The position numbers and the translations under genes were made by a program. A DNA stretch of 64,000 nucleotides from Amoebophrya sp. A120 (lineage: Eukaryota; Protista; Dinoflagellata): positions 2,892,658-2,956,657 of the forward strand of contig CAJINV010000006.1 in the NCBI GenBank assembly GCA_905178155.1, written 5' to 3'. The first letter of the stretch is position 1; every line of letters starts with the position of its first letter. The notes beneath the pieces are model-generated. The model was not told where the DNA came from. It saw only the letters and a list, made by a program, of their open reading frames with translations, and ran no database searches. This document shows positions 1 through 27,740 of this stretch, in pieces.

Positions 1-209
1 TATCCAAGGAAAAAACTGTGTAAGTGTAATTTTCTTGGAGGAATAGCATCACAAGTTTGCTCTGCATGACACGGAAAACCTGTCATGCGTAGCTAGTACG
101 TGAAGACACGTACGAAAAGAGCCTCTGATGCACATCCAGCATGACAAGTGTAACAGTTTTGCACTTTCTGCATCACAGACCTACACTCACATAGTTTTTG
201 TCTTGCATA

Positions 210-3200
210 GGCATCTCTAGTCGAAGGCGGAGAACCGGAATTAGCGGTGGAGGAGTTTATCGGCGCTTGCATGCGACTATGAGATGATGAGAGCACAAGA
301 ACCTCCTATTTCCCTCATTTCAAGGAGGGCACCATGAGTACCAGGAATAGAAACACCGCTTAGCTACATGGACCTTGTGCAGCATGACAAGTTCTTGTAC
401 TTCCTGCGCCGTTTGATGATGTCCGGGATTTATTGTCATGCAAACTGCGCCAAATGAGTTATTATTATACAGCAACTGGATTTGGCACTTTGCATGACAT
501 CAAATGAGGGCCGCCGTGGGGGAAAGTTGTGCAATCTGATAGCGACTCAAGGGCGAGGCGAAGTCGAAGGATTCGTTTATCGTGCAGTTGTCGGTCATTC
601 AGGCGACGGAGAAAATCGAATTTCTCGGGAAGACCACGGAGAGATGCAAGAGGTGTTCTTGGAATCATGATTTTTTGTTATACTACGTTGTATCAAGTTA
701 CTTAATATTTTTCGCGGCCCGCGCCCTTGACATTCATGCTTATCAGGGGACCGACACCGAGGAAAAATTATGGCCGCTACTTTCTAGTTATGGTGGCGTC
801 AACGACGCTTTTTTCAAGTATGCTGAAAATTTTGATATGCATTTTTTTTCGCATGACGATTCGGGTTCCGAGCACTTGGGCGACACTCGAAGACATCGCG
901 CCCCGTTCCCACAGGGCCTGTGTCTATCAGCTTGGAGGCTGGCCACGTCAAGCTCCTCCGGGGCCCACTTCGTGGAGGGCCCGCCGTGTGGCATTCGCTG
1001 TTGGCGAGGCGCCACGGCGTCCCGAAGTGCACCAAGGGGCGCGCCCCTATGTGTTGGCGATGCGCATGCCCCGCCGCGCGGGCACACTTCGAGCAAGTAG
1101 AGGCGTTGCACAGGTTGGGCAAACCTCGACGATGCCGCGCAACATTGGGCCGCGTTTTTGGTTTCCCATCGATTCGGCGCGCCCACGTTCGTGGCGAAGG
1201 CTTTGCGGATGCGCCCTCCCTGTGCGCGACCGCATAGACATAGTCGGTGGGCCCGCCGCCAATCGCGAGCGCGGCGCCTGTGCGAGTTCAGTCCCCGCGG
1301 CGCCGCCCGCCCGCCGGGCCGCCGTGCAGCCCGCCGAAGCCTTTGCCGGGGTATGCCCCCGCGGCCGCGCAAGCCTGCCCGGCCCCGCGCGACCTGCCAG
1401 GCGACTGCGGGCCAGTAAATGCACTACCAGGAAAGCGTCGGCGGCAAGCCCCGGGGGCTGCCTCCGGAAGGGGTGAAAAGATGCCCCCAAAAAAAACGCG
1501 AAACCCCAGCGAATGATGCCCCTCAAAGAGGTCCCCAAACGTCCCGGAGCAATTGCCCGACGCCGGGCAGAGAATTCTCCGGAAATTGCGCCGAAGGACC
1601 TCTGCCTGTGCTTGGGGTGCCTCGGAAATAAAAGACAACAAAGCTGAAACGGGCCGCGCCCCCCCTGCAGGAGCCGCCGGTAAGTTGGCCCGAGCGCCGC
1701 CGCCAGGGATTTTGCTTCGCGATAGGCGGCACTGGCGCCTGTCAAGGGGGCGCGCACAGATTAGCGAGAGCAAAATGTTGGTGGTGTAGGGTCCACGCGC
1801 TTTGGCGGGCCAGGGTTTCCGGCCGTGTCCGGAAAAGCTGGCCCCCGTCCGGCCTTTTCTTCCAAGGTGCATTTTTTGGCATTATTTTCGCCCACTGCGC
1901 CCAATGTCTTCGCCGCTGGTATGTCGGCAGGGGTTTCCATAGATAGAGGAGAGACGGGGGGCCAACGAGGAAACCTTGGGCGGATGTCGGGAGGCGCCCT
2001 CCCTCCCCGAAATGATCTCAGACAATGCGCGCGGGCCAACACGGCGGGCCTGTTCATGGGCGTCTAGCTTGGCTCCCCTCTCATTGGGCCTGCGCAATCA
2101 AGTGCGCGGCCCGCTTCTGCAGTTTCATTGCCCGAATGCGCACGGGCGGAAGGGCGGCGCATTTCCAAAAAATACGCATAGAAAAATTCTCAGCATACTT
2201 GAGAAAAGCGTCGTTGACCGGGCCATACTAGTACGCAATCATGACGTTTAGTACAAAGAGAATCTTCCGTGTCTTGAGCACTTACTTAATACTGAAGGCA
2301 GAATTTTTGATGTGGCGCGTGTTTCAGATACGGTCTGTGTTTGTTTTTTTGTTTTTAACTGCAAATTTCTGGTCGATGCTTTTCAAGCATGCAAAATGAA
2401 AATCTTTTTATGAAACTTATTCAGGTTCATTGACGTTTCCCGGGGCTTAGTAGACCGCATGGATGTCAGTACCCCCATAATATATTTGTATGCCAGTACA
2501 CGAAGGGCCCTGCCCCTTCCTGTCCTAAAACAAGCGCCACATACAAATCGCCAGTGCATATAAAATGGGCAGTTTGTCTGGCCCCTTCTGGTCCCGCCGG
2601 ACCCTTCCAGCACTGGCCCGGCCGTCAAGTACGGGGCCCCAGTAACTACTGGAGGTCCCGTACGCAACTGGTCCTACGATGCCCCTGCGCCCTCGTTTTA
2701 TATTGCCCTGGTTTGGTCCGACTGCAATACGTGGCTGCCTAGCTAAAACAAAACAGCCACTCAGTGAAAAACATTGAAAAAAGCGCTACGCCTCGGTCTT
2801 CTCCATTTTCAGTAGACTCTGCAGCAAGAGTGCTTTGCTAAAGGAGCGAGAGAATTCTGCTAGCTACCAAAGCGCGCACGCGAAACAAACTCGGCCCTTG
2901 TATGTTTTCGAAGCGCCGCCTGCAAGCGTGCCGCCACCGCCTGCTAACAAAATATCGATCCGCAATAGTTCCTCACCGCGCGCGCGCCGCTAGTTTTTTT
3001 GGTTTAGCTCCCCTTTTCTCCGCTTGTGTCGCTCCTTGTGCGCAGTGCGCGCTCGGCAAGCCTCCCTTTGCGCTCTCCTGTTGTTCCGCGGAGCGATCTT
3101 TTCGCGCGCGGTGGATTGTGGCCTGCTTTGCGTAGCAATTTGCTGCTCTGTCACACTCACCACCAGCTTTTTATTCGCTTTTCTTGGACCATACAACTCC

Positions 3201-6200
3201 ATTGTATGCGTCCGGCAGTACATACAAAAACTGCTTTTTTGTATAGCGGATTTCGGTGTTCCTCTCTCCTTTCGTATGTATTCAGGCTTAGAAAAAAAAG
3301 AACACAAGCCAATTTTTAATCAAGCGAATATTTTTCGCGCCAAAAATATACTTCTGATAAAAAATATTCGTTTGGTAACGCATTGAACGGCGTCGCGAAC
3401 GACATTGGACACCGTACAGCGTTTGTGACCTGCGGGCGATCTAGGACAGAGGAGTCGCGCTGCGATCCCTTCTATCTTGAACACATAGCTTTGCTGCAGT
3501 TGCCGTTCCTTGTTGCAGTTGCGCACGTGTTTCCGCTACCGAGAAGCTTGCATCCGTTTCCTGGCCCCTTTGGGCAGAATGCGGCGCAATTGTCGCAAGT
3601 GGGTCGGTTTACTTATTTCTAGTTGCGCACGTTGGGAAGATGCGTAGTGCTATGCGAGCCGAGCGGTCGGCGGCCGGTCGCGAAAATGTTTTGCGCAAGC
3701 AGAGCCCGCTTCGGCTTTTTGCTTTGTTTGGAAGAGCGCGAGCGCCTTTTCGTGTTTTGCCAGCCTGCGCTCGGGGCCAGGAAAAAGCCTTTTGCTTATT
3801 GCGCGCGCCTATTTCGGCGCCATCATTGGTACTGGTGATGGTGTGCGCGTGGTGTTTTGTGCTCTTACGGCGGGAAAAAAAAAATCGGCGCGCTGCGCGC
3901 GCACAGGCGCCGTGGTTTTGGTAGTTGCTTGCGATGCCCTTGTCGCGTTTGGCAATCAGGGGCAGCGGCCGGCCGAGAAAAAAGACGTGGCGTGCTGCGC
4001 ACGCGCAGGCGCCCTGACTTGCTTCGGTAGTTAGGGGTTGGCCGAAAAATTTTCTTCGCGCGCTGCGCGCGCGCAGGCGCTCCGACCTTGTGGGGGCGCG
4101 ACAAAAATGCTGCTTCACGCCCGCCAGCAGCCGGGGTCTGGCCGACGAATGAAAAAGCGCTCGCGCGCTGCGTGCGCGCAGGCGCCTCGGCCTGGGTGCG
4201 GCGAAAATTTTTTGCAGCGCTCCCGGTAGTCGGGGGCTAGCAGGAAAAAAAATTTTCGCGCGCTGCGCGCGCGCAGACACCTAAGCACCGCGCGCAGGCA
4301 CCTCCGTAGGCTCTCGCGCGTCCTGGGGGCGCGGAGAGCTCTACTCGCGTCCGGCAGCCGGTGACCTGTCGGGGAAAAAATTAGTTCTCGCGCGCGCGTT
4401 GCGTGCGCGCAGACGCCTTGGACTGAGAGCGCGCAAAGTTTCTGTCGCGTGCGGAAGCGGGTGGCTTGCCGGAGAAAAATTCTTCGCGCGCTGCGCGCGC
4501 GCAGACGCCTTGCCATAGGGGCGTCAAGCTTTCCTGGGGGGGCTAGCCGGATTGATTGGCCGGCGGGCTTGGTCGCAAATTTTTTTCGCGCCCGGCAGTC
4601 GCAGCTTGGCCGGGCGACAATTTTGCGCGCGCGCGCCTGAGAACGCGGACAGCTTTGCTCACGGCCGGCAGCCCGTCGGGGGAAGGGATGCTCTGTTTGA
4701 AAAAAAAACTCGCGCGCTGCGCGCGCGTAGGCGTCTCGGCCCCAAAGGGTGGAGCTTTTTTTTGCGACCGGCACGCGGAGGCCTGATTGTAAAAAGTTTT
4801 CACCGCGCGCGCTCGTTGCCGCCTTGGTCTGAGGTCGCGCGCAGGAAATTTTTTCGCGCCCGGCAACAGAAACTGGAGGGAAGAAAGTTGTCGGGCGTTG
4901 CGGGCAGGCGCCGCGGCCTGAGAGCGCGCGCAGGGCGGAGCTCTACTCTTATTCTGTAGCCGGGGTTTTTACGGAAAAAAAGTGCGCGCACACGCTGCGG
5001 GCGCAAGCGCAGGCGCTTCGATCTGATAGCACGAAAAATTTTTTCGCGATCGGCAGGTGGGGGCTTGCCTGAAAAAAGTTTTCCTGTATTGCGCGCGCCC
5101 TTTGGCGGGCGCCTTTGCAGGAGAGCGCGATCGGAAAATTTTTTCGCGCCCGCCAGCCGGTAACTGGGAGGGAGAAACTGCGTCGCGCGCGAAGCAGGCG
5201 CGCGGAGTTGTTTTCTCGCTTTCGACAATGGTGGCCTGCCTTGGAAAAAAATTGCCGTTGCGCTGCGCGCGCACAGACGCCTTAGCCTGGCTGCAGGCGC
5301 CGCGCGCCTTCTTCTCGTCAAGCAGACAGTTGGGGGTTGATCGGATAGGGAAGCTCTTCGCCCGCTAGGCGCGCGCAGGGGCCTTGGCGTGAGAGTGTGG
5401 GGCGACGACTGAGGGCGCGGAGCGTTTTTCTCTTGTCCGTCGACCGGGCGCCGCCCTGGTTTTTCTCTATTAATCTCACTCCGCGCATTGTTCGCGCCCG
5501 GGGATTTTCCGGCGGGTGTTATCAACGAAACGCCCGGGCGCTGGCCGTACCATTCAGCGTAGCTAGGTTTTTCGTGCTCCCCGCGCAGCGTGGCGGGCAT
5601 GCTCCTCTAAAGGCCCCACGCATTCCCGCCCTGTCTCCAAGGCTGGGAGCTGCGAAAGCCGCATGCCCGCCCGGGTAAAAGTCACTTCAAGAAATAGCCC
5701 GCCAAAAAAATACGTCTACTGTTGCTGGCCGTCTTTTTCTGAGAGAAAAACCACTGCGCCTGTTGCTCGAGTCTCTGTTTCGCCAGCGCGCTTGCGCTTC
5801 GTGTGGGGAATCCTGGAAACCCGAGGAAGCCATGGGGCACGCAAGGGCGGGAGGGAGACTAGCGAAGGGCGTAGGTAGCAACGTAAGTCGAGGAATCGGG
5901 AGAAACAGAGGCTGTGGGGATGCGTGTGGGCTTCGGGAATGAGGAGGCACGCTCGCGGCTGCGGGTGCAGTCGTGCAGGCCGTCGCGGTCTGGCAATCGC
6001 TCAGGTCGCGCCTGCAAGCACCTTTCTGCGAGTCAGAGTCTTTGTTTCACTCTTCCCGAAGAAGCAACGTCTTAGGCTCCCTTCTGCCCGAAGTAGATAG
6101 ATAACTGCATATTGAGGGTTTCTCGGCCCTTCCGAGGCCGCCCTGGCCCTCCTTCGCCTTCTGACTGAGGCCGCCGTGGCCTTCTGAGGCCTTCTGAGGC

Positions 6201-9200
6201 CAAGAAGGATGCCGAGGCCAGACCAGTCAACCAAAAGGATATATCTTTTCAAAGATATATTTTTTTCAAACGAATACTTTCGCAATATTTTCGCCAATTC
6301 TTTGCCTTTTTTATGCTTTTGGTTTCTCTTTTTCTTATTCTTTTATTTCTTTTTTCTTTTCTCTTCTTTTCCTTTGTATTTCTCCTTATCTTCGTCATCT
6401 CTCCGTCCTCCCCTATTCAAGTGAATATTTTCAATCAAACGAATATTTTTCGTGTTCTTTCTCTCCGAGCTCAGATAGATGGCCCTTTCGTATGTTGTAG
6501 GTACCCTTCGCGTACTGGGTGCCCTTCGTGTACTGGTTCACATGCAAAGTGAAAATCTTTTTATGAAACTTATTCAGGTTCATTGACGTTTCCCGGGGCT
6601 TAGTAGACCGCATGGATGTCGTCCTGAAACGGCTGCTAGGAATTGCAAGGAATCTTCGATCTGGACGTCTGGAAGGTGGCTGCAAGACTTGTCTCAGGCA
6701 GTGATTTTGCATGAAGTTTACGCGTGATGTCTGTGATGTATGCCGTAGCATCTACTTCTTCGCGGATCTTGATGTGAGGAACTTATCTGGTAACCAAAGC
6801 GTGCGCAAGCGCCGCTCATCCATCACAAACGCAGCGCGAAGGCTTTGCCGTTGCCATATGGGAGGGACTCGAGAGTATGCAAACACTCGCAAAATCGAGC
6901 ATTTCCCAGTGTGTTTTGCCTTCAGAAAGCGGATCGGGCAGAATTTGAGGGAGTTTTACCGAAAGCAGCCAAAACAGCAATTATCAAGCGGGGAGAGCGT
7001 AAAAAAGAGCAGTTTTATTGCTCCGCCCGGTCTGAATCTGAAAAAAGATAGTGGCATTTTCGGCAAGGGCCGATGGTGTGATGCGTTTTATAGCGGAAAG
7101 TGCGTCACTTCCGGGCAGCTTCAGTCGCTTAAAAATTAAAAAAAAGGGCTTAAGAAGTGTGTTTTTTCACAGCATGCAAGCGGGCGACAAAATTTACCGA
7201 TTTTCTCCAGTCCCCGGAAGACGCTTAGAAATTGAAAAAAAACACGAAAAAAGTTACATTTTTCGCAGCGTGGAAGCGGCCGACAAAATTTACCGATTTT
7301 CTCCAGTCCCCGGAAGCTGCTTGAAAATTGAAAATGACAATTTTTGCTGAAAAAGCAAAAGCCGCTTACAAATTGCCGCTCCAAGACGGTTTTTCAAATT
7401 GTCACACGGCCCACACCGTCGAGATTGGAAGAAAAAATACAGCTACTAAGCCTGTGGAGGTGTGTCACACGGGCACGGTTTTCGTCCTCTCTGAGGGTCG
7501 CGACATGAGATCCCTCCTGCTTGGAAATGCCCGATCTGGGTGGCCCAAAAGGGCAGCCGGAAATGAAGAAAATTGCATCACTTTTTGAAATTCGTGTCTT
7601 TTACCTGGCCAGCGCGCCCCCGTGCGTAAGTAACGTTATGCGGGACGGTATAGTGGCCTCCAGAACAGGCTAGCGGTATACGGGCCAGGCGGCCAGTTTG
7701 TCATGCAGGGGCTAGAACGGATGCCCCGCTGCGAAATAGCAAACCGGATTTCGCCTTCAATGCTTATCGCAGGAGCCTGCGGGCCGCCGCGGGCGACAGT
7801 AGTTGTCCGCGGCCCTTTAGGGCCGCGGGGAAGTGATGTCTGTGATGCATGCCCTAGCATCTACTTCTTCGCGGATCTTGATGTGAGGAATAATTCCTGA
7901 TGCCCATACCGCCTGAGAACAAAAACTGCACCTTCTGCGTAAGTAGCAATTCGAATTCTCGTGCCCCTGGTGGAGCTGCTTGTTACGCGGCAACAAAACA
8001 AATTTTTGTAGAATCGAAACGCAGGAGCTGCATAATTACAACAAGTTTATTGCTGCATCCAAATGTCGTCCAGACCCAGATCGATTAAGAATTTGCAATG
8101 CATAGCTGCATATGAACTGCAAAAGTATCGTACTCGTATAAATGCATTACAAATTTTATCAGCATGAGAAATAAAATTTGTAATGCTGATTTGCCTTGAC
8201 AAAGAAATTTGTAATGCAAGACCTCGTTCGTCCCAAAGCCTCGCCATCGAGTTCGTCCCAAAGCCTCGCCATCGCTCTCAGAGCCTTCAAAACCTGTCCA
8301 GCCAGTGGATCCATTAAGCGGTCGACGAAATTGATACAACTAAGATCAGCACAGGAGCACTCAGGCAGATCACGAGGCAGGGTGAGGAACTTACAGGATC
8401 CCAAAAAAAAAAAATATACTAAGCAGGTAAAGACAAGAGGCTAAGAAGATCGAGCCCATCCAGATAGAGAAGCCCGGAGACGATCCAGACCAAAAAAAAA
8501 AAAAAAAAAAAAAAAANNNNNNNNNNNNNNNNNNNNNNNNNNNNNNNNNNNNNNNNNNNNNNNNNNNNNNNNNNNNNNNNNNNNNNNNNNNNNNNNNNNN
8601 NNNNNNNNNNNNNNNNNNNNNNNNNNNNNNNNNNNNNNNNNNNNNNNNNNNNNNNNNNNNNNNNNNNNNNNNNNNNNNNNNNNNNNNNNNNNNNNNNNNN
8701 NNNNNNNNNNNNNNNNNNNNNNNNNNNNNNNNNNNNNNNNNNNNNNNNNNNNNNNNNNNNNNNNNNNNNNNNNNNNNNNNNNNNNNNNNNNNNNNNNNNN
8801 NNNNNNNNNNNNNNNNNNNNNNNNNNNNNNNNNNNNNNNNNNNNNNNNNNNNNNNNNNNNNNNNNNNNNNNNNNNNNNNNNNNNNNNNNNNNNNNNNNNN
8901 NNNNNNNNNNNNNNNNNNNNNNNNNNNNNNNNNNNNNNNNNNNNNNNNNNNNNNNNNNNNNNNNNNNNNNNNNNNNNNNNNNNNNNNNNNNNNNNNNNNN
9001 NNNNNNNNNNNNNNNNNNNNNNNNNNNNNNNNNNNNNNNNNNTTTTTTAGCGCACCTTTATGATGGCCTTACTGTTGAAAGGATGGAGGGAGTTAAGTCA
9101 GTTTTTAGAACCCAGTCTGTTTATGCTAGCAAAGGGCTAGTGCGCTGTGGACCCCCAGGATCAGGTAGACGAGGTCCCAGACCGAAGTGGTAGGCGCTTA

Positions 9201-10853
9201 GGGTGAACTATGTATGTAGCGCTTAGGGCCCTTCCGTACGGCCAATTTGTATGCCCGCAACGGGGTTCGCCTAAGTCGGTCATTTATATGCAAGGCGTTG
9301 GGTTACCCGGTCGGCAGAGCCGATCCACAACGAACGAACGAAGACCTGCATTTATACGAGTACGATACTTTTGCACAGCATACTGCAGAGAATCGTGCCC
9401 CACCGGCCCGGCGTGGAAAAAAACCTCACCAAGGAGGAAAAATTCTTCCTGTATTACAGTGAAAAATGCCCCCACCCCCAAAGTTGCAGAAATTTGTGAT
9501 GCGAAATTTTCAAATGAAAACTTTTTGCCATGCATGAAAGGAGTATGAATCTTTCTGATGCAGAGTCTAGGCGTGTATCGCATCGCTTGCATGACAAGCG
9601 CCGCTCTTGCCGGGATCTTCTGCAATACAAACCTTTGCGATTCACGATTGGAAATCTGTGATGCTGATAGATGCAAGAGGGCGAATGTTTCTATTGGAAA
9701 GGTTTGCAACACAAATGCTCCCAATTTCGGGGGTGGGGGCATTTTTCATTGTAATATCCTGGTGCCGCAGTTTACCGACAAAGTCCCACTCTATGGAACG
9801 ATTGCACAACTCGCTCACTTGTTCTCGAGGCTTTGTCTATTCATCTTCCATTTTCTAATTTATTAGATTTACAAACGGCGACACGCAGAAGCAGAAGCAA
9901 CTAAAGAATTTTTTTTGCAACGGCCTCATCTGTAGTCGTGTGCAAGATGACAAATGCTATAAATGCATCATCAAAAATGAATAAAAAAGAGAGCGAAAAA
10001 ATAATCCGGAGGAGTCGTTGTGCAATTTCATACCCTCGGCGTGCCCTACGGTTTCGGGCGGATCGCGATGCAGAAATCAAAGGGCTACGACAGGAACTTT
10101 CAACCCAGATTCGACGAGCTCCGTCGTTTGGGCGGCCTCAACCAGGAGATCTCGCAGGCGAAGGCACTGTATCCTGTGCAAAAGTTGTATATATCGTACT
10201 AGTATAAACCGCATGACAAATTTCTCAGCGTGATGAAAAATGGAACTTGTAATGCGGATTTAGGTTGAGAAAAATATTTCTCATGCGTGACTGCGATTAA
10301 TAGTACGAGGTGCGATACGACTTTTGCAATGCATAGACTGCTATCCTGTGCAAAAGTATCGTACTCGTACAAATGCTAACGCAAGTCTTGCATTACAAAT
10401 CTTGTTTCCAAGGCAAATCTGCATTACAAATTTTATTTCTCATGCTGAGGAAATTTGTAATGCATTTATACGAGTACGATACTTTTGCACTGGATAACTG
10501 CGGATGAGTCGGAAGAAGAAGAAGGGCGTTGCGGTATAACCCGCTCAGCTGTTACAATCTCAAGTGTTACAATAGAATATGAAAATCTGTGATGCAAAAC
10601 ACACATGGCCTAGCCTACTCCCACAGCATTGCGCATGACAAGTTCTGGAGTCCCAAACTGCACGAGAATTATGTGGCGAAATTTGTAATGCAGAAAGTGG
10701 AACGCTGTGCGGGTCTGTCATGCTCATCATGCAACACAAAATCCAGATTCTATTGTAACGTTTGAGATGGTAACCAATTTGAGCGGTTCATATGCGGGGG
10801 AAATCACGGTGCTTGGGGAGGGAATTGGTGGTGGAAAGGAAAATTTGTACTGA
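210..10853 (+). CDS. 3' part of a multi-exon gene: EF-hand-like motif plus coiled-coil tail, probably the C-terminus of an ion-channel-type protein (5' end lies upstream of the window)
   Basis: Removing the TAT..ATA elements at 1, 278, 6637, 8111, 9452, 9792, 10170, 10342 and 10535, plus a large intron (~643 to ~6598, boundaries uncertain), gives ...ELAVEEFIGACMRLKGEAKSKDSFIVQLSVIQATEKIEFLGKTTER-LVDRMDVVLKRLQRIVPHRPG...VPLGVPYGFGRIAMQK...ALRMSRKKKKGVAGEITVLGEGIGGGKENLY, ending TGA 10851-10853. EEFxxxCMRLKGxAK resembles the post-S6 EF-hand region of dinoflagellate channels (recognised from memory, not searched). Confidence 0.65.
708..2281. mobile_element. Old GC-rich intronic insertion with subterminal inverted repeats
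   Basis: IR GTCAACGACGCTTTT(T/C)TCAAGTATGCTGA(A/G)AATTTT at ~798-833 versus ~2183-2218; flanking direct repeat TTACTTAATA at 698-707 and 2282-2291. Boundaries are uncertain. Confidence 0.55.
2468..6540. mobile_element. 4.07-kb non-coding insertion flanked by an 80-bp target duplication
   Basis: 2388-2467 equals 6541-6620 (1 mismatch). Perfect 16-bp asymmetric subterminal IR CCAGTACACGAAGGGC at 2493-2508 and 6521-6536; hairpin at ~2629-2664; internal degenerate repeats. Confidence 0.85.
3875..5285. repeat. Dispersed degenerate repeat: A/T tract followed by CGCGCGCTGCGCGCGCGCAG(A/G)CGCC, about 10 copies
   Basis: Copies near 3890, 3995, 4060, 4165, 4258, 4390, 4486, 4711, 4985 and 5262. Confidence 0.85.
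6782..7832. mobile_element. 1.05-kb insertion flanked by a 58-bp target duplication, nested in a family A introner (6637-8104)
   Basis: 6724-6781 equals 7833-7890 (2 mismatches). Hairpin CCGCGGCCC-TTTA-GGGCCGCGG lies just inside the right end; internal ~76-bp duplication at ~7160 and ~7258. Confidence 0.85.
8225..9340. mobile_element. Insertion with 7-bp TSD nested in a family B introner (8111-9382); spans the assembly gap
   Basis: TSD AAGACCT at 8218-8224 and 9341-9347; termini CGTTCGT...ACGAACG; poly(A) 8492-8516 precedes the gap. Confidence 0.75.
8517..9042. other. Assembly gap
   Basis: Run of N. Confidence 1.
9452..9756. mobile_element. Introner family C, representative (~305-335 bp)
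   Basis: TIR TATTACA(G/A)TGAAAAATGCCCCCACCCCC; repeat TCCTG/TCCTG. A close reverse-complement copy lies at 20817-21125; others at 28961 and 57968. Confidence 0.95.
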
Positions 10854-12925
10854 CAAGGCGTTTAATGAGCCTTGTCGTTTCTGCCTGTTTCGCATGACAA
10901 GAAAAAGTTGTGCGAAAAGCATTTTGTATGTTAGTTTATTTCCCCGGTACAAAATAATCTTCTTGCTCTTGTAAAACTCTTGTAGTCCTCGTAAATAAAA
11001 CCAGCACGACCTCACTGCTTGTAATAGTAATGCACTAAAAGTTAAAGTGATTCGGCTTTATCACAACTGGTTACATTGAAAATCAAAGCGGAAACCCGAA
11101 TGCAAAAAAGAACCCCTTTGAAATGCATTTTGACCTGTACTAACAAGTGTAAGTATCTCTCTCTCGTCTCTTGTTCTGTAAGATAACAAACTACGGCTGC
11201 AAGAATCCAAACTACTGTACGATTTAATATTCCATCTCAGATAACAAACTTCTACCCCGTAACTTTATTAGGACAAAAGTATTCATCTTGACAGAACGAA
11301 GTTACAACCGTATTCAATCACAATGCAGAATCAATAATACAAATGCACCCGGAGCTCAAGCTTTTTACCTACACGCTTTTGATATCAGAATGCCAAAATG
11401 AACTACGGTCTACAGTATGGTATGCTTTTCTTCTGCGTTTGGTGATGTCTCCATGTTTCACTTTGCTGTGTAACGTCGGGAAGCAGGGAAGGTGGCGTTC
11501 AGTAGACACAAAAAGCATTGTTACGACCACAACGAACTCCAAAAGGACACTGTTCCTCTTGTGATGTTGTGCGATATCCTTTACCTAGTATAGTAACTCT
11601 TGCGATTAAATCTAAATTTGCTTTCTTGTAGAACTTTTTAGAATCCATCAATACGAAACTGAGACAAACACGATAGACCTGCTGCTTATGCTGTGCGCAC
11701 CGGTTGTACTAGCGCACCAGTTTACGTCGACCTAGCGCGCGGAGGTAGGAGGTTCTTCTTGTGCCCAACCAATACCTGGCTTTATATGTTCCTAGAAAAT
11801 GGTCCTCTAGGTCGCCGGTCATCGCCCAGCCGCAGCTGAGTCGTGTCCAAAATTATACTTGAGCTTACTTTGTTTATCTTCAATAGTGTAGTCCTCAACC
11901 TGTACAATATCAACACAGCTTTCCCCTACGCCTTGATCTGCAAGTAGGAGTGGAACTTCTACAGATGAAACTTGCTACGAGGAGTACTTTCGAAGGGAAG
12001 TAGAAGAGCAGTCCTCTTCACGGTGCTTGTAAAATGATTCAAATGAAAATGTAAAAACAACCAAACTCTAGTTGTGTGCAACGAAGCTACAGTACAAGAA
12101 GGAAAGAGAATCGGTGATAAACAGCTGGGGCGGAGGGCGAGGCGGTTTCTCGATGCAAATGAGCAGAACAACTTCCCTCCTGCCCGACATAATATACGGC
12201 GAAGGTGTTCAGGATCAGGGCCGAGCACGCCTGCTGCTATAGTCCTAGTCCTAGTTTCATTAACTTGTTTCAAAGAATGAGGTTGTTCTAATAAAATCCT
12301 CCACCTCCTCATAAATATGAATGTCGGACGTGCAATCCTCCCTGAGCCTAGTTTAGTATCATTAGCGCTTGTCACCATGCATGCAACATGTACAGGCTCA
12401 CAGGAGGGAGAAAGATGATCAATGGAGCTATGAAAAACGAAACCACGACGACTCTCCTAGTGAAACGTCCATGATTTGTCGTGTTGCTGTCGTGGTTAGC
12501 AAAGCATCACTCTGTACTGCACGACTCTGAACAGCGATAATCTGTTGTTGTACTAGTGGCAAAAAGTCATGTTGAGATCTGATTTCCGCTCAAGAGTACT
12601 AGAGTAATTTCGCTAGAAGTAGAATTAGAAGTACAGTTTGTTCGTTTGTTCATCAACAGCAATCGATTTTTGAGTACAGTAGTTTCGATAAAAGCAACAC
12701 AATTCGCGTCTAGTTGTGACGGTGCGTTAATCGCGACAGATTGATAAACAGCTAGAAACAAGGATTTATGAAACAGGTGAAGTTGGCAAACAAGCGACAG
12801 TTGTCTTTATTCAGCAGAATGACGTGGAAGCTACGATCCCGCTATGAATTCTCCCTGGCCCCCTCCCCAGGACTGTAGCTGTACGTCGACGACAAAGGAC
12901 GAGCGGCGACCGACAACATTATTAC

Positions 12926-15900
12926 ATGATGAGCGACCCCCTGGACCACGTTGAGGCAGCAGCGGTCGCCCCCCCGGAGGGGTCGCAAGGTCAACAAATT
13001 CATCCGGGTGCGGCAGTTCTACACCCAGACGAAATTGCTGCTGCCGTGGTTGTATCAAGTGCAAAAATGTCTGGGTCTGGAAGAATGCATGTTTGTCATG
13101 CTTGTCTGGCATGACTCTTAAATCTGTCATGCACTTTTACCCAACAGCTCCATTTTTCTGTGATGCAGAAACGCAGTTCGTCATGCAGAATAGGCAACAC
13201 CTAGAAGCTCAGATGAAACTTGTCATGCTAAGCCAGCACTTGTAGTTGCCTCATCATGAGACGCCGCCCAGCATCACAAGTTTCCAGACCCAGACATTTT
13301 TGCAATTCATAGGTTGCTGATGTGGAGTCCGACACTGAGTCGACGACGAGCTCCGTCTATGCAAAGAAAAAAGTGTTACAGTACGTATACACATTGTGTA
13401 GTTCTTGCAAGACCGGTAAGACAGTAAACCTTTGTCATGCACGAACTGCTTTCGAATTCGAGGCTTGTTTCATATTCACGCGTGTTCTTTTACCATCTCT
13501 GAATGGCAAGTTTTCTCTGTCATGCAGAGATGAAAATTTGTGTCTCTACTGCATGTTGTAATTACAACAAATGTGTACCTACCTGTAAATGCACGTTTTT
13601 CGCGGGATACTGTCGTGGACCAAAATTCCCTACAAGTGGATATGAACTGCAAAAGTATCGTACTCGTATAAATGCAATACAAATTTTCCCAGCATGAGAA
13701 ATGAAATTTGTAATGCTGATTTACCTTAAAAGAAGGATTTGTAATGCAAGACTTGCATTTATACGAATACGATACTTTTGCACAGGATAGTGGACCACCA
13801 CCAACAACTTCATGTCCCCATTATCAAATGCAAAAATGTTTGGGTCTGGAAACTTGTGATGCTGAACTGCGCATGATTGAAGCGCTTCCAATGGCAGCCA
13901 AGCATGACAAGTTTTTGAGAGGCCTGCTGATGCCTAGCACGCATTACAAATTGCGTTTTTGCATGACAAAGAAAGCCTCTGTTTTGCTGCTCATGCAACA
14001 CAGATTTTCCACGAATGCATGACACGCATTACAAGTTCCACTTTTCCAGACCCAGACATTTTTACATTTGATACCCATTCTCGGTGGCGTACAAGGCAAC
14101 AGCCACTCTCTCAACGACACACTGGCGCAGTCCCGCATCGACACGGCGCGATTGCTGGGAAGCCGCGGCTTCGTGTTCCCCCCAGCACCAGGAACATCAA
14201 ATGGGGCAACTGCCAACGTGGTGGACGCAGGACCCGGAGGCGCAAATTTGGCCGGGAATGGCGGGTCCGGGGCACCCACGCCGTTTGGGGCCAACGATTA
14301 TCGTTTTTTCGCGAATAATTCCGCAATGACCCACCTATTACCGGAGCACATTGAGGACGATTTTTTGCGGTTGCAGGCTATGCGAAGAAAAATCTGTTTC
14401 ACTGTGGTGATTTTGCAAGATCTGCATCACAACTTTGTTACACATGACAAAGAAATAAACTTGGCATGCGTGCTTCCTAAAAAGGGAAATAAACACAACT
14501 AGAAATAGAATGTGTTTCATGTGTAGCAAGACAAACACATTTGCGTTGCGTTCTATCATGCATCACGAAGTTTACAGTGAAACAGTTTTTTCTTCCCGCG
14601 ATACAGGCGGAACAGAAAATTTTAGAGACCGTGATGCGCGAGAACAGGCGGCTTGAGGACGAAATGCTGTTCTATCGGGACAGAACCAAGGATCTACTGG
14701 AACGGGAGAAAACGTATGTTAATGTGATTCTGTTTCCACCTTTGAGAAGGTTCAAAGACCAAGCTTTGAATTTCGCTTATATGGTGCTGATGCTGTGCTG
14801 CTGTGTAAGACAGGACATGTCATGTTGTCTCGCATCGTGGTCCACCAACCGCGCGACAACGACAAACACACATGACGAAATAAATCAGGCTTCGCATTTC
14901 CCAGATGGAAAACCAATCGAAGGCGGAAGCGCTGGAATCGTCCCGGGACCAGGTGTATCCAATGTAAATATCGTCCTTGAATCTAGTCGGGAAACTTGTA
15001 AAGTGCTCAGTTGCAAGCCCAGCATGAGAAATTTAATATTCGCGCGGCTTCAAACATATTCTTGTTTTGCTTTCCGCATATGAAACTGCGTTTTTGCATG
15101 ACAAGAAAACGGTCAACATCCCTTCTTGGACACGCAACACAAACTCTTCAGTCATGCGAGACACACACGCCAGCGTGAGTACAAACATTTTATCCTTCGA
15201 GACCACCCAGATCGGTATTTGCAATGCATAAGGTTGCCGACAACTACGGCAAAAAGCTCTTCAAGCTGGAGCGGCATTATCAAATGCAAATATGTCTGGG
15301 TCTGGAAAAGTGCAACGTTTGTCATGCACGTTTTGCATGACGCGTGAGGTCTGTGATGCATGCCCTAGCATCACAGATTCTGTGAGATCTTTTCCATGCC
15401 TTTTCCGCATGGATGAGAAACTGCCTCTCGGCCTTCTTAAAAATAAAAGTGAACAGCTTTATTGGTAATCACGCAACACAGATTTTTGCATGCTTCAGAT
15501 TTAGCATGACAAGTTGTACTCTTCCAGACCCAGACACTTTTACACTTGATAGGCATTTGGCGAAGACGAAATTCGAAAACAAGCAACTGAAAACCGAGAT
15601 GGTAATTGCGCAACAGCATGTGTTATCCTGTGCAAAAGTATCGCACTCGTATACGTATTGCAATCATGCATTATCTTGAGGTAGATCAGCATTTTACAAA
15701 TTTCATTTCTCACGCTGAGGAAATTTGTAAATGCATTTATACGAGTGCGATACCTTTGCAGTGGATACGTGTATGAGCAGCAGGAGTTTTTTGAAAAGCA
15801 CATGACCAGCATGGAGGAGGCGCAGGAAAGAGAAAGCAAGGACAAGAAATATCCTAAGCAAAAACGTCCCCACCCCATAGTCAAGTTGGGAATCTAGCAA

Positions 15901-18900
15901 CACAAATCTCCAAGCTTTGGGGACTGTACATGACAAGTTTCCCTCTGCAGTGTAGTTCTGATTGGCAAGATGAGCCGCATGAGAAAGCCACTTTCACATC
16001 CTGTTTACAGCATTACAAATTCCAAAACACGATTGGAAATCGCTCTCGTGGACGAGCTGCGCATTCCAAATGTTCCTGTTACTGCGCATTTGCATGACAA
16101 CTCTGGTGTGGGGACGTTTTTACTCAGGACAAAAAACTTCTGAAGGAGCAAGCGGAGAAGGCGGAGCAAGAAAAGCAGAAGCTCGACGCGGAAAAACAAG
16201 TTCTCTCCACTGACCTCGTTCTGATCGACAAGAAAAAGAAGGAGGAAATCCTAGCGATGAAAAAGGACTGCGTATCAAAGTGAAAATTCCCCACCCCATA
16301 TTCAAAAGACAACTTGTGTTGCTGGATTTCTGTACACAAATGAACTTTGTACTGCAGCAAGAGCTTGCGCTTGTCGGCATATTCTATCTGAGCCCATTTG
16401 GGTACGCATCCGGCAAGCAGCTGAGCATGCGAAACAAGTCTGACATGGGCGAAATCGCATGACAGACTCGCTGCACAATGCGCCGCATGGGTGCCGTTTG
16501 CCTTGTACGCAAGACAAAGCTGATTCGTGGTCACAAATCAGCATCACAAATTTCCTTTTCGATATGGGCAGGGGGGATTTTTCCTTACGATACTGCGAGG
16601 ACCGGCTAGAGACCTTGACCAAGGAACTCACCGCCGAAAAGACGGCAGAGCTCGAAACCCTGAAAGCAGAACTCACATTATGCTATGTAAAAACGTCGCC
16701 ACGAACCCATAGTCAAGTTGGGGAATCGGCTAGACAAATCCACAAGTTTTGGCTGTTTTGCATGACAGATTTGGAGTCGTAGTGTAGTGCTATTTGCGGT
16801 AGTTTAGCAGCGTCACAGATCTGGGCCATCATACTGATTGGAGCATGACAAATTCCAAAACACGACTAGAAAGCGCTTCGCATGGGGCTCCGGATGAGAA
16901 ACATGCTTAGCATGCAGATTTGCATCGCAACTACCAACTATGGGATGGCGACGTTTTTAAATACGATACATACACAAACTCGCAGAAGAGACCACTCGAG
17001 CGGAAGCGCAGCTCGCGGAGGCGGAGCAGGCACACGCGGCCCACCTCGAGAAGTTGACAACGGAACACGAGCAAGCCAAGCAGGAGGGGATCGAAGCAGC
17101 GCAGGCGCAGTGCGAGGAGCGGTTGGCCGGGGAAAGGGAGGTATTCAGAAGAGAAAAGGAGAAACTGCAAGAAGACCTGATCGAGGAAAAACAGAACGCA
17201 GACATAAAAATCAACGCACTGCAAGTGGAACTGACCGAGAAGAATCAGAATTTTGACCAAGCGTCCATCGAAGTCGAGCAACAGATGCTACAGTTCCAAG
17301 AATATTAAATGCAACAGCATCGTACTAGTATACTACAAATCGCATGACAAATCTCCTCAGCATGAGAAATAGAATTTTGTAATGCGGACTCAACTTGAGA
17401 AAGAAACTTGTAATGCATGAATGCGATTAGAAGTACGACTACGATACTTTTGCACAGGATAAAGAACAGGTGCAGCAGTTGCAGGACGAGAAGCAGTTTT
17501 TGCAAACGGACTTTGACCAGTTGAAGTTAGACTTGGAAAAAGTAGCAAATGCAAAAATGTCTGGGTCTGGGAGATTGCGATATATGTCATGCCAGTCTGG
17601 CATGACTCTGAACTCTGTGTTGCATGGCCGCGAAGAGCTCCGCCTCCCTGTCATGCAAAAACGCAGTTTGTCATGCGGAATAATACGCAACTCAGAACCA
17701 TGAAACAAATTTGTCATGCTTGGCAGCGCATCACAGTGAATTCACTATTCCCTTTCTTGCGTCACAAGTTTCCAGACCCAGATCGATATTTGCAATGCAT
17801 AGAAAGCCGAGTCCGACAATGCGCAGGAAAAGATTCTGTTGGAGAACGAGTTTGAGCAAAAGCTGGAGCGGTCCCTGGGCGAGGAGCGGAAAAAGCTGGA
17901 ACAAAAGGTATGACCTGCTCAAACGTTACAATCTCAAACGTTACAATAGAATCTGGATTTTGTCTTGCATGAAGAGCATGAGGAACGTATGTGGAGTTGC
18001 GCCTTTCGCAATACAAATTTTGCCGGATATCGATGGGGTTTTAGGTGCCGAAACTTGTTGTAATGCGCAAACCTATGGGAATACGGTAGATCATGCACTT
18101 CCTGCATCACAGATTTCCATATTCTATTCGTAACGTTTGAGATTGTAACAGCTGAGCAAGTTATAAAAGGTAAGCCAGATTGAGTCGGAGTTCATGCAGC
18201 AGTTTGAGATGAAAGAGCATATGAACTGCAAAAGTATCGTACTCGTATAAACGCATTACAAATTTCCTGAGCATGAGAAATCAAATTTGTAATGCGGATA
18301 TACGTTTAGAAAAAAATTTGTAATGCATGATTGCAATTACTACGAGTGCGATACTTTTGCACAGGATAGAGCAGGAAGCGCTGGACCTGCAGAAGGAGCT
18401 GGATTTGGTCAACAAGGAGTGCAACGAGCTGAAGGAAAAGGTCGATAGCATGGAGGTCGACAAAACGAAAGAGTTCACCCATATGGAAGTGTCAGGATTG
18501 AAATCGTCAAAGTTGAAAAGATTTGTAATGCATAAAACCGATACCAGATGGAAGCCCACTTATCAAGCGCCGCGTGACAAATTTTCCGAGCACGGGAATC
18601 AATCCAAGTTTTCATGCTGTTTCGGCACAGGAGACAGCTTTTGTCATGCTACTTTAGCAGCTCTGTCCCAAACCCTAGACAGGCTCACAATCGGCCTCAC
18701 TTGCCATCCCTGCAACACAGGCACCTCATGCTTTGCATTTTATGCATTGCAAGTTATTTCAACTTTGTTGATTTCAAACCTGACGCTTCCATAGCCCAGG
18801 AAGACCTCGAAAAGCGGATCGCGGAGGAAAAAGAACAGTGGGAAATTATCCCGAGCAAAAACGTCTCCACCCCATACCCATTTTGTGAAAATAGCGAAGT

Positions 18901-26087: not shown

Positions 26088-27340
26088 GTTTGATTGGTTC
26101 ATATGTAAAAATTCCGCGGTACGTTGTGTTAGCAGATGATCCGAGGTTGTAGTATTGATGGGGACAGTCCCGCTTTAGTACTTCTTTACAACCAATTGAT
26201 TCATTGTTGCACCCTGCGGCGCTGCTAGCGTGGTCGCAGCAATCTTCCTTCCGGGAGAACAAGAAGAAGATGTTTGGGGGGAGCAAGACAGAAAACTTTG
26301 TTGACACGACCAAGCGTGAGCTCACTGTTGTAGCGAAGATGATGAACGAACGACCAGATGAGTTGTACACGAAGCAAGAAGCAGAACCATGAAGCACCAA
26401 AAATGAAGTATCACGAGGAAAAATCCCCCCTCCCCATATCAAAAGGAAGTTTCTGATGCTGGATATCCGTATACAAATCAAATTTGTCTTGCAGTAGAGG
26501 GCACCAGGCTCCAACCAAGCCTGAGGAGAGAGCTTTTGGCCTAGGGGCTTAGCATGCGAGACGTCTATGCTGCAGGCCCAACAGCATCACAAACCGCCTG
26601 CATAATGCGGCAGAGCCTGTGGAGTTGTCTTTTTGCAAGACAGACGTGATTTGTGGTCTCAAATCAGCAAGACAAATTTCCGGAAGCATACCTTTCCGAT
26701 ATGGGGAGGGGGGATTTTCCCTCTCAATATGAAAATGAACACTACGATAAACCACGACCCCCGAGGACGTCGTGGTCCTCTTCTAAGGCGGCACATCTGT
26801 CAGCTACCTAATATGAGAGTGCACAACTCCCCCTCCCCCTCATTTGCAGGGCAGGAGCAGCAATACAAACACCAACACACTTGGAGCCTGTGCATGACAA
26901 GTTCACGGGCCGAGTGCAGTACTGTTTGGGCTCCTTCTGAAATTTGTCATGCAAACAGTTTCACAAGGCACCAAATGACTTGGGGACTTTGCGTCACATC
27001 TGAGGGGGAGGGGGATTTCGGGTTGTGCGCAACTGTTATACTCAACACTTACCCCCGGAAGAAGATCATGTTCAGACGTCGAACAGAAAAAAAGAAATAG
27101 AGCAACCGTGGTTAAGTAGACTCGTTTAGCACGAAAGAAAAGTGAAAATAAACCAAACTATTTTCATTTCAATCTATCGACTTCTTCTTTCTTTGCCTCT
27201 GTGCTTCACAGCTCGGTCGTCCTCTGTAGGGGAAGAACGTCTTGCCTACTAAGTGAAAATGTCGTTATTTCGGTAGCTTTTACCTCGTGCAAAATTGATA
27301 AACAGCGACAAAGTACTAGAATAGTGACGTTGCGTCTACG

Positions 27341-27740
27341 CTTGCGACAAGAAGGACAACTCGGTGACGATGCTTCTACGCTTGCGAAAAGAACTACAAC
27401 TCGGTGGCTGTGCTTCTCGTACGAAAAGACCTACAACTCGGTGGCTTTGCGTCTCTTGCGAAAAGAACTACAACTCGGTGGCTATGCTTCTCGTACGAAA
27501 AGACCTACAACTCGGTGGCTTTGCGTCTCTTGCGAAAAGACCTACAACTCGGTGGCTTTGCGTCTCTTGCGAAAAGACCTACAACTCGGTGGCTTTGCTT
27601 CTCGTTCGAAAAGAACTCCTCGGTGGCTGTGCTTCTCGTGCGAAAAGAACTCCTCGGTGGCGTTGCGTCTCTTGCGAAAAGAACTGCTCGGTGGCGTTGC
27701 GTCTCTTGCGAAAAGAACTGCTCGGTGGCTGTGCTTCTTT
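27341..27740. repeat. Minisatellite of about 11 units (mostly 37 bp, then 34 bp)
   Basis: Unit CGAAAAGA(A/C)CTACAACTCGGTGGCT.TGC.TCTC.T.; the last four units are 3 bp shorter. Confidence 0.95.

Follow-up and report, generated by a model that had tools for sequence, protein, structure and literature searches.

Within the 64-kb stretch of Amoebophrya sp. A120 DNA analyzed here (the window), a 4-kb non-coding repeat sits in an exon of an expressed gene, 43 nt inside that exon. The gene lies on the forward strand. Its upstream exon (543-652, donor GT at 653-654) has an open frame from 543 with an AG directly before it and, read from the sequence, probably begins there. RNA-type contigs from two samples, X3 and X6, place 621-650 directly before the exon at 2425/6578, which defines an original GT..AG intron of 1,772 nt at 653-2424 (GTGTTC...TTATTCAG) that ends at the left of two acceptor copies. 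The same intron houses a separate GC-rich element at 793-2223 (outer limits read by eye) with inverted terminal repeats of about 52 nt (798-849 versus 2167-2218; 52 nt, 88% identity); this element is not part of the finding described here.

The exonic insert is 4,073 bp long and is flanked by an 80-bp direct repeat, with copies at 2388-2467 and 6541-6620 on the forward strand that are identical but for one of the 80 positions (2396 is A, 6549 is G). The window contains just one further low-copy pair of long direct repeats. The repeat had been predicted to derive from the target rather than to be an LTR, and this is borne out, as each copy passes without a break into the host sequence beside it and the RNA-type contigs from X3 and X6 define the intron/exon boundary inside it, giving 37 nt of intron end and 43 nt of exon start (2425-2467 in the left copy). 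The insert is bordered by ...GATGTC on the left and CATGCAAAG on the right. A 16-nt subterminal inverted repeat (2493-2508 and 6521-6536) is complementary at 16 of 16 positions, a score reached by 0 of 500 shuffles of the two 120-nt element ends. One arm begins 25 nt in from the left end and the other stops 4 nt short of 6540 (4-8 nt inside the right end), so the asymmetry and pairing are as originally claimed, and a third copy of the arm with two mismatches is present at 6503-6518. The element lacks a terminal inverted repeat (score reached by 181 of 500 shuffles), a poly(A) tail, and a recognizable splice site of its own. The absence of a credible ORF also holds, with no Pfam family in any of the 28 overlapping stop-to-stop ORFs of at least 100 aa. 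Throughout the window, all 180 ORFs of that length were scanned, and no reverse transcriptase or other mobile-element protein was found. The 80-bp repeat with its ORF-less insert is a real and unusual insertion.

The inserted DNA is a composite, a feature overlooked in the original prediction, in which a multi-copy element of about 0.9 kb (A) carries a GC-rich segment of 3.2 kb (B). The division follows from a shorter form of A in run X1 that joins 3283 to 6480; X1 and X2 are DNA-type runs of one sample, which may be the source sample of the window's assembly. A loose end before 6480 resembles 3254-3283. The left arm of A (2468-3283, forward strand) contains the inverted-repeat arm at 2493-2508, the palindrome AATATATT at 2479-2486, and a hairpin at 2484-2548 (minus-strand fold z -3.4). 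Segment B (3284-6479; 3,196 bp, 58% GC) is missing from the short form. It holds diverged repeats of about 100 nt around a palindromic GC core (3854-5386); a 32-nt core recurs 10 times from 3883 to 5386, and there is a hairpin at 3310-3335/3360-3385, so that the hairpin and central repeats described earlier are both present. Its terminal inverted repeat is not significant (31 of 500 shuffles). The right arm of A (6480-6544, forward strand) carries tandem 18-nt units at 6500-6536 (TRF period 18 x 2.1) that include both 6503-6518 and 6521-6536, and it closes on the family terminus ...GGTTCACATG.

Summed contig depth reaches 300-880 over 6405-6548, compared with 48 on the flank. Other copies of the right end of A, with at least four different right flanks, diverge only after 6544, 6545, or 6547, and in X1 a contig whose left flank is different matches A from 2470, with seven differences within 2528-2656. 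As the element ends recur elsewhere with other flanks, the insert belongs to a repeat family; by contig depth and differing flanks its ends are multi-copy, not single-copy. The flanks of the other copies are visible for 14-30 letters only, and the left boundary in other copies is a single contig with 14 flank letters. Those 14 letters and one right flank resemble the A-internal positions 2639-2653 and 2546-2556, so the other flanks may in part be nested copies. Because the similarity among at least four other genomic right ends extends to 6544-6547 and includes CATG (6541-6544), the last 4 nt of the element are also the first 4 nt of the right repeat copy, leaving 76 bp of pure duplication plus 4 shared nucleotides. 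This overlap is microhomology; the chance that the target had CATG at this junction anyway is 1/256.

The architecture had been likened to that of non-autonomous Helentrons (HINE or DINE-1), which, according to excerpts from Thomas et al. 2014 (PMC4067079), are likewise non-coding, with central tandem repeats, subterminal inverted repeats of 12-15 bp at unequal distances from the ends, and a short palindrome near one end. The likeness fails at the insertion site. Helentrons are described there as inserting in TT or T-rich sites, with T strings at the ends and without target duplication, whereas the present target is not T-rich, the flanks are GTC on the left and CATG on the right, not TT or T strings, 80 bp are duplicated, and no Rep/helicase partner is seen in the window. 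The Helentron reading was therefore rejected.

The mature mRNA of the host gene is intact. In the RNA-type contigs, the exon ending at 652 is followed by a 59-nt exon at 6578-6636 (acceptor AG at 6576-6577), which has one open frame (FIDVSRGLVDRMDVVLKRL), and then by sequence from 9387 onward. For X6, a single 2,397-nt contig (depth 27) spans the upstream exon, 6576-6636, and 9387 onward. For X3, a 2,583-nt contig (depth 251) stops at the end of the repeat and then branches in two: a 71-nt contig (depth 311) continues through 6621-6636 to 9387, and a 453-nt contig (depth 11.4) leads from 2438 into the element.

Sixteen nucleotides downstream of the 80-bp repeat begins a non-canonically spliced insertion with MITE ends. 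The segment 6637-9386 (2,750 nt, forward strand, with an N gap at 8517-9042 inside) consists of the insertion together with a single copy of the CTGC that it duplicated. The mRNA lacks this segment: loose ends at 6636 in both X3 and X6 equal 9387-9416. None of the five equivalent cuts gives GT-AG. Its 5' end, TAGGAATTGCAA, agrees with the MITE end TATGAATTGCAA in 11 of 12 positions, and its 3' end is ...TTTTGCACAGCATA. The window is full of MITE "introners" of about 150 nt with 5-bp duplications; of 20 full copies, 15 have a perfect one. They fit the A120 introners in the available text of Farhat et al. 2021 (PMC7789003), with TAT, 7 variable nucleotides, a run of A, and direct repeats of 4-5 nt; introner elements and the non-canonical splicing of such MITE-like introns are described there for Amoebophrya strains A25 and A120.

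A second long flanking repeat, overlooked by the original prediction, lies 100 bp from the first. Its 58-bp copies (6724-6781 and 7833-7890, 56/58 identical) enclose a 1,051-bp insert, the whole occupying 6724-7890, and no inverted repeat was found at the ends of this insert (end-pairing score reached by 337 of 500 shuffles). A 473-nt contig in X1 (depth 48.2) joins 6745 to 7855 and is an apparent empty site.

The best explanation, in which we place middling confidence, is a joint one: a composite repeat entered an exon, 80 bp of target were duplicated, the mRNA stayed intact by way of the downstream acceptor, and integration proceeded with a variable stagger. The downstream acceptor copy is the one likely used, and the only canonical route from the window to the observed mRNA leads from donor 653 to acceptor 6577. 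Splicing would run from 652/653 to 6577/6578, the left exon copy and the element would become the tail of an enlarged GT..AG intron of 5,925 nt, and the left acceptor would act as a decoy giving a minor read-through RNA. Against this reading, the two acceptors are identical and the first transcribed might be expected to win; use of the left acceptor with later removal of the element and one repeat copy would give an identical mRNA; and MITE insertions with one duplication copy are lost from RNA without GT-AG 16 nt downstream.

It could accordingly be speculated, though we consider it unlikely, that in all transcripts 652 is spliced to the left acceptor (2424/2425) and that the element is then excised from RNA as a giant non-canonical intron. 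Just as unlikely, in our judgment, is the mechanism this might use, in which the machinery of the MITE introners removes the element with one repeat copy, the 16-nt inverted repeat pairing the repeat copies. The order of direct repeat, inverted repeat, inverted repeat, and direct repeat is that of Amoebophrya introners, which, in the available text of PMC7789003, are also non-coding repeats in genes with direct repeats over their boundaries and complementary motifs of 8-20 nt near both ends, and are absent from mRNA. From the same transcript (X3, X6), 6637-9386 is lost in like manner; the 453-nt X3 contig represents RNA that passes from the left exon copy into the element; and the 2,583-nt contig is unbroken through 652/2425 to the branch, which suggests that the upstream intron had already gone. 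However, the published direct repeats measure 3-5 nt, not 80, and the published inverted repeats stand at the intron ends, not 25 nt and 4-8 nt inside. The element is 4.07 kb, whereas that paper covered introns of 40-1000 bp only, and the TAT...ATA motif found in the window's MITE family is missing from the element's ends. No RNA contig across the right junction was seen, and splicing could proceed by a canonical GT..AG route without any new assumption.

As to the origin of the duplication, it can be hypothesized that the target strands were cut about 76-80 nt apart, that the right end of the element (...CACATG) annealed to CATG in the target, and that synthesis on both sides filled the single-stranded stretch. 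Integration would then be of a target-primed or end-joining type with variable stagger, without a fixed-stagger transposase. That element and repeat share 4 nt at the right junction speaks against a transposase cutting with a constant stagger of 80 bp, and the 5-bp duplications of the resident MITE family indicate that an ordinary transposase event looks different here. A precedent exists in target-primed non-LTR retrotransposons with very long target duplications, 126 bp for rotifer R9 and longer for Chlamydomonas Dualen, which imply strand cuts tens to hundreds of nucleotides apart (PMC9977147, in excerpt). Microhomology at the 3' junction fits target priming. R9 and Dualen code for a reverse transcriptase and for endonucleases, and R9 is specific to rDNA, whereas the present element has no ORF and no poly(A), and possesses an inverted repeat. 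The lack of poly(A), the lack of a reverse transcriptase or other mobile-element protein in the window, and the presence of a perfect 16-nt subterminal inverted repeat, a feature seen more typically in DNA transposons, all count against our explanation.

The original prediction had instead seen in family A an undescribed class of DNA element, with an enzyme cutting about 80 bp apart as a rule and a long duplication at each copy. This we regard as improbable. It would accommodate the discrete family ends recurring with different flanks, the subterminal inverted repeat and the tandem 18-mers resembling protein-binding sites, and the missing terminal inverted repeat, and the 58-bp repeat nearby is evidence that this genome has more than one long duplication. 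That second case, however, is of another length and its insert has no end inverted repeat, so long repeats are not tied to the structure of family A. The CATG overlap is unexpected for a transposase of fixed geometry, and no partner protein is seen among the window ORFs. The bacterial elements IS1549 and IS1634 make long, variable target duplications like the present one; they differ in being prokaryotic, in encoding a transposase, and in having terminal inverted repeats.

It is conceivable, at a similarly low level of probability, that no transposition took place and that a replication template switch, or the repair of a break that had long overhangs, took up repeat DNA by copying or capture and copied 80 bp of target a second time. 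Equally doubtful is the extension that the 58-bp case 100 bp away reflects the same error-prone process at a fragile site. The microhomology at the right junction and the 0-2 unexplained letters at the left (AG, 2468-2469) would suit such repair, as would two long-repeat insertions within about 100 bp, with no other low-copy long pair in the 64-kb window, and a second insert devoid of transposon-like ends. Yet the right junction falls exactly on a terminus common to at least four other copies, and at the left no more than 2 nt separate the junction from the one other boundary observed, a precision that random capture would rarely achieve. Sample S1 has the 80-bp insertion but apparently an empty site for the 58-bp case, a difference in distribution that makes them separate events.

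Both junctions recur in other runs. Exact 65-nt contigs cover 6515-6579 in X1 (depth 47.2) and X2 (21.2), equal to the flank contigs (48.2 in X1, 21 in X2), so nothing in the sample behind these two runs hints at an empty allele; at the left junction, loose ends in X2 and X3 give the first 30 letters of the element directly behind the repeat. Contigs built from 31-letter words cannot phase the identical stretch of 71 nt, and the arrangement therefore rests on the window's assembly. An assembly artefact, with the gene uninterrupted, the element and a captured 80-mer elsewhere in a tandem array or circle, and the 71-nt stretch mis-threaded, is nevertheless very improbable: with such words all four junction types fit either arrangement, the window has a scaffold gap (8517-9042), and the shared 71-nt contig in X2 stands at depth 64.6 and its branches at 21 (a ratio of about 3, where 2 is expected), but an artefact would need an element holding exactly the host's intron/exon junction between its ends, the mismatch (A 2396, G 6549) sits on the same exact X1 and X2 contigs as the element's right end, just as in the window, and branch depths are equal.

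With use of the downstream acceptor, the insertion would resemble the introners of Gozashti et al. 2022 (10.1101/2022.06.06.494994), where, in the available text, a short target duplication supplies a splice site. In both, a duplication made by the insertion gives a splice signal and an exonic insertion is spliced out. Theirs is a few base pairs long and completes a site of the element, whereas here the whole acceptor region and 43 nt of exon are duplicated. As the mRNA in X3 and X6 is intact despite the exonic insertion, the proposal that the duplication rescued the gene fits, through probable use of the right acceptor. The non-canonical removal of MITE insertions from RNA, which the original prediction had overlooked, may offer a second route of rescue.

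The 80-bp direct repeat that flanks the 4,073-bp element consists of the end of a host intron and the start of the exon that follows it. Its two copies, at 2388-2467 and 6541-6620, are identical at 79 of 80 positions (A at 2396, G at 6549), and when the whole window is compared with itself, just one other comparable pair of low-copy direct repeats emerges. Contigs from public sequencing runs provide the gene context. Runs X3 to X6 carry the label 'RNA?', with no run recorded as RNA; X3 and X6, representing two samples within a single study, are treated as RNA here on the strength of contigs in which exons are joined and a GT..AG intron is missing. In these RNA-type contigs, window letters 621-650 abut the exon at 2425/6578, and a GT..AG intron at 653-2424 can therefore be assigned; a GC-rich 1.4-kb element with terminal inverted repeats of ~52 nt (88%) lies inside it at 793-2223. 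As the original prediction proposed, the repeat includes an intron end and an exon start, which here measure 37 nt and 43 nt, and the reading frame named there is the sole frame open in the exon. The RNA contigs show the host intron running on into the left copy and the right copy running on into the host exon, so the repeat is target derived and not an LTR.

The element is absent from mature mRNA in both runs. In X6, one 2,397-nt contig runs from the upstream exon through 6576-6636 and then on to 9387. In X3, a 2,583-nt contig (depth 251; all contig depths are rough figures) stops where the repeat ends, forking into a 71-nt contig (depth 311), which carries 6621-6636 on to 9387, and a 453-nt contig (depth 11.4), which runs into the element. 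The X6 contig and the X3 branches together indicate an intact mature mRNA alongside a minor RNA in which an exon copy is followed by element sequence. RNA contigs of X3 give no cover over 1500-2367, 3677-5331, and 6477-6572; neither these gaps nor the 0 reads of the raw RNA runs X8 and X9 over 1500-8000 are counted as evidence. Another RNA-type contig of X3 exactly matches 6211-6475, the right part of an inner GC-rich segment of the element (B, described below), and past 6475 repeats the preceding 13 letters in tandem before passing into unrelated sequence; this contig derives either from another copy of B or from a processing event.

The structural features originally described for the element are reproduced. 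Its asymmetric subterminal inverted repeat pairs 2493-2508 with 6521-6536 at 16 of 16 positions, a score reached by 0 of 500 shuffles, with arms set in by 25 nt on the left and by 4 nt on the right (8 nt with CATG included), and the predicted extra copy of the arm is found at 6503-6518 (14/16). The hairpin is present at 3310-3385, the central repeats prove to be diverged and GC rich with a 32-nt core occurring 10 times between 3883 and 5386, and no ORF of the element matches any Pfam family, in line with the earlier statement that none was credible. Across the window, Pfam identifies no mobile-element protein in any of the 180 ORFs of 100 aa or more, and the Rep, helicase, or endonuclease family is absent from the same set. 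The sole ORF with a clear protein family encodes MORN repeats (33144-34097; PF02493, E 1.3e-35); a tandem array of ~39-nt units at 27120-27821, with all three frames open and repeating ...RWLCFSCEKTYNSVALRLLRK..., gives weak Pfam hits only. Rfam and tRNA scans of 1-12000 returned nothing inside the element and no tRNA anywhere in that range. Four weak, miRNA-like Rfam hits at 9452-10501, which fall well short of the gathering score, are hairpins of the MITE family considered below.

No further copy of the element occurs within the window, where all 35 of its BLAST matches fall inside the element itself, and the 24-nt right terminus had 0 matches when metagenomes were scanned for it. The DNA-type runs X1 and X2, which represent a single sample and may be the source of the window's assembly, identify the ends of the element as members of a repeat family, here called A. 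At the right end, at least four X1/X2 contigs agree with the window as far as 6544, 6545, or 6547, where they enter other flanks (starting ACTCC, TAAAA, and CTTGT), and contig depth summed over 6405-6548 is 300-880 versus 48 on the flank. At the left end, a single X1 contig with another left flank begins to match at 2470, and it shows 7 differences from the window in 2528-2656. Some of these other copies may be nested, as the 14 letters of that left flank, and also one of the right flanks, resemble internal A sequence. The recurrence of the right end with different flanks defines a family terminus, ...GGTTCACATG. This terminus, ...CACATG, is common to at least four other copies, and its final CATG coincides with the first 4 nt of the 80-bp repeat, an overlap expected by chance at 1/256; the duplicated target of 80 bp is accordingly counted as 76 + 4. 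A short form in X1 joins 3283 directly to 6480, and the window copy can therefore be resolved into outer A sequence (2468-3283 and 6480-6544) around the 3,196-bp B. Terminal inverted repeats are not significant in A (181/500 shuffles, first versus last 30 nt) or in B (31/500).

Both junctions are represented in the runs. Exact 65-nt contigs cover the right junction (6515-6579) in X1 (depth 47.2) and X2 (21.2), and as these depths equal those of the flank (48.2 and 21), the X1/X2 sample gives no sign of an empty allele; an empty site with a single 80-mer is invisible in contigs built from 31-letter words, 71 nt being identical in both copies. At the left junction, the first 30 letters of the element stand behind the repeat in X2 and X3. 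The linear order rests on the window's assembly, because 31-letter-word contigs cannot phase the 71 identical letters.

A second long direct repeat, of 58 bp, lies at 6724-6781 and 7833-7890 (56/58) around a 1,051-bp insert (6782-7832), which is built of sequences repeated elsewhere in the genome and has no inverted repeat at its ends (337/500 shuffles reach the score). Each copy runs continuously into its own flank. In X1 (sample S1), a 473-nt contig at single-copy depth joins 6745 to 7855 and thus holds one repeat copy and no insert; a contig of X2 over 6591-6720 is compatible with this insert-less form, the 6745/7855 joint lying outside the stretch compared in X2. The insert-less form in S1 represents either an empty site, and hence an insertion polymorphism, or a repeat-mediated deletion. 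A mere pair of dispersed repeats is ruled out: the dispersed family concerned (15331-15372, 44570-44598) covers just the first ~30 nt, the remaining ~29 nt are common to both copies, and their own flanks are continuous. It follows from the 58-bp case that long flanking repeats are neither unique to A nor dependent on its inverted repeat. Elsewhere in the window, another family of dispersed repeats, ~200 nt long, occurs at 1-215 and in about 10 other places (e.g. 46770-46996 and 48069-48290); its translations recur as ...ICGHKSA...WGGGIFP...

The same transcript contains an intron of another type. An abundant MITE family of ~150 nt (range, ~135-260) has 20 full copies across 10342-63472, among them 13641-13789, 18220-18368, and 63323-63472. 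Its members begin with TAT, 7 nt, and AAAAGTATCG... (starting AAAAG) and finish in ...CGATACTTTTGC....ATA (CTTTTGC), with a 5-bp target duplication that is perfect in 15 of the 20 full copies, matches at 4/5 in four, and at 3/5 in one. The 2,750 nt of 6637-9386 have a MITE-like 5' end and a MITE 3' end with a CTGC direct repeat, are missing from the mRNA contigs of X3 and X6 (two samples), and admit a GT-AG intron at none of the five equivalent cuts; X1 and X2 DNA contigs pass 6636 unbroken. This stretch is a non-canonical intron, a MITE with nested insertions. Similarly, one MITE with one copy of its duplication (21881-22034) is the exact gap between in-frame coiled-coil ORFs at 21233-21940 and 22008-22538, the frame of which is kept by removing either these 154 nt or 148 nt with GT..AG ends (21887-22034). 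According to Farhat et al. (2021, PMC7789003), more than 60% of Amoebophrya A120 introns are non-canonical, and 'introner elements' are described with inverted-repeat motifs of TAT, seven variable nt, and an A run, and with direct repeats of 3-5 nt. The MITE family and 6637-9386 match this description, and the window would come from a relative of that organism; the MITE motif was not found in one of the paper's supplements. An apicomplexan origin, considered because of the MORN hit and the Sarcocystis literature, was set aside in view of the closer fit of the non-canonical intron and the MITEs to Amoebophrya.

The account favored here for the element is that a family A copy inserted into the host exon, 43 nt from its start. 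The two target strands would have been cut 76-80 nt apart, the right end of the element would have annealed to the CATG of the target, and fill-in would have duplicated the stretch between the staggered cuts. A transposase with fixed stagger accounts less well than target priming or end joining for three observations: the overlap, the left junction with its 0-2 unexplained letters, and the unequal lengths of the repeats (80 and 58 bp). A feature of target priming is indeed observed, namely a fixed 3' end with microhomology to the start of the duplication, and target-primed elements are known for long duplications, with 126 bp for R9 and more for Dualen (PMC9977147). Against this account, Pfam finds no reverse transcriptase in window ORFs of 100 aa or more, poly(A) is lacking, the right end holding just two to three 18-nt units, and a subterminal inverted repeat recalls DNA transposons more closely.

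At the RNA level, the simplest route would be splicing from donor 653 to the downstream acceptor at 6577, giving a 5,925-nt GT..AG intron that encloses a decoy exon copy and the element, and this canonical route would yield a product identical to the mRNA of X3 and X6. Alternatively, splicing may reach the left acceptor first, with the element and one repeat copy then removed non-canonically, as non-canonical removal does occur 16 nt downstream in the same transcript. A more far-reaching version, which we consider improbable, combines integration with a strand stagger of 58-80 nt, twice within 100 bp, with family A as a giant 'introner' that is excised from RNA, along with one 80-nt repeat copy, by the non-GT-AG machinery of the MITE introns; were it true, family A could spread as reverse-transcribed excised intron RNA.

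Among known systems, Amoebophrya introners share their architecture with the element, which differs from them in its 4-kb size, in its direct repeat, and in the place of its inverted repeat: in PMC7789003, 8-20-nt complementary motifs lie at the ends of the removed stretch and a 3-5-nt direct repeat spans the exon/intron boundaries, whereas the perfect 16-nt pair of the element is subterminal and its 80-nt direct repeat is 16- to 27-fold longer. The likeness to Helentrons suggested by the original prediction did not hold up. HINE/DINE-1 elements, as portrayed in PMC4067079, do have subterminal inverted repeats at unequal distances from their ends (12-15 bp, compared with 16 nt here), but insert into T-rich or TT targets with T strings at their boundaries, neither of which the element has (...GGATGTC/AGTACC... 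on the left and ...GGTTCA/CATGCAAAG on the right), and are described there as making no target-site duplication, in contrast to the 80 bp found here; a target that is not T rich and the presence of a duplication rule out a Helentron identity. A cut-and-paste transposon with terminal inverted repeats is rejected on ends that pair no better than 181/500 shuffles and on a duplication of 80 bp instead of a short one. An LTR element with the 80-mers as LTRs is excluded by RNA contigs that mark both as host intron and exon sequence. The element is filed as a variant of two known kinds, insertion with a long duplication and duplication that supplies a splice site.

To our knowledge, target duplications that supply splice sites have been discussed mostly for lengths of a few bases. 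When the duplicated target includes the entire splice acceptor, an insertion that would otherwise disrupt an exon merely lengthens the intron before it and does no harm, a simple route for intron growth and for the settling of mobile DNA in genes. Here, one transcript brings together a canonical intron, a non-canonical intron of typical MITE form, and an element flanked by 80-bp repeats, in a genome whose features match the published description of one where most introns leave by an unknown non-canonical process. If long duplications are the rule for family A, it would integrate by a chemistry new to eukaryotes.
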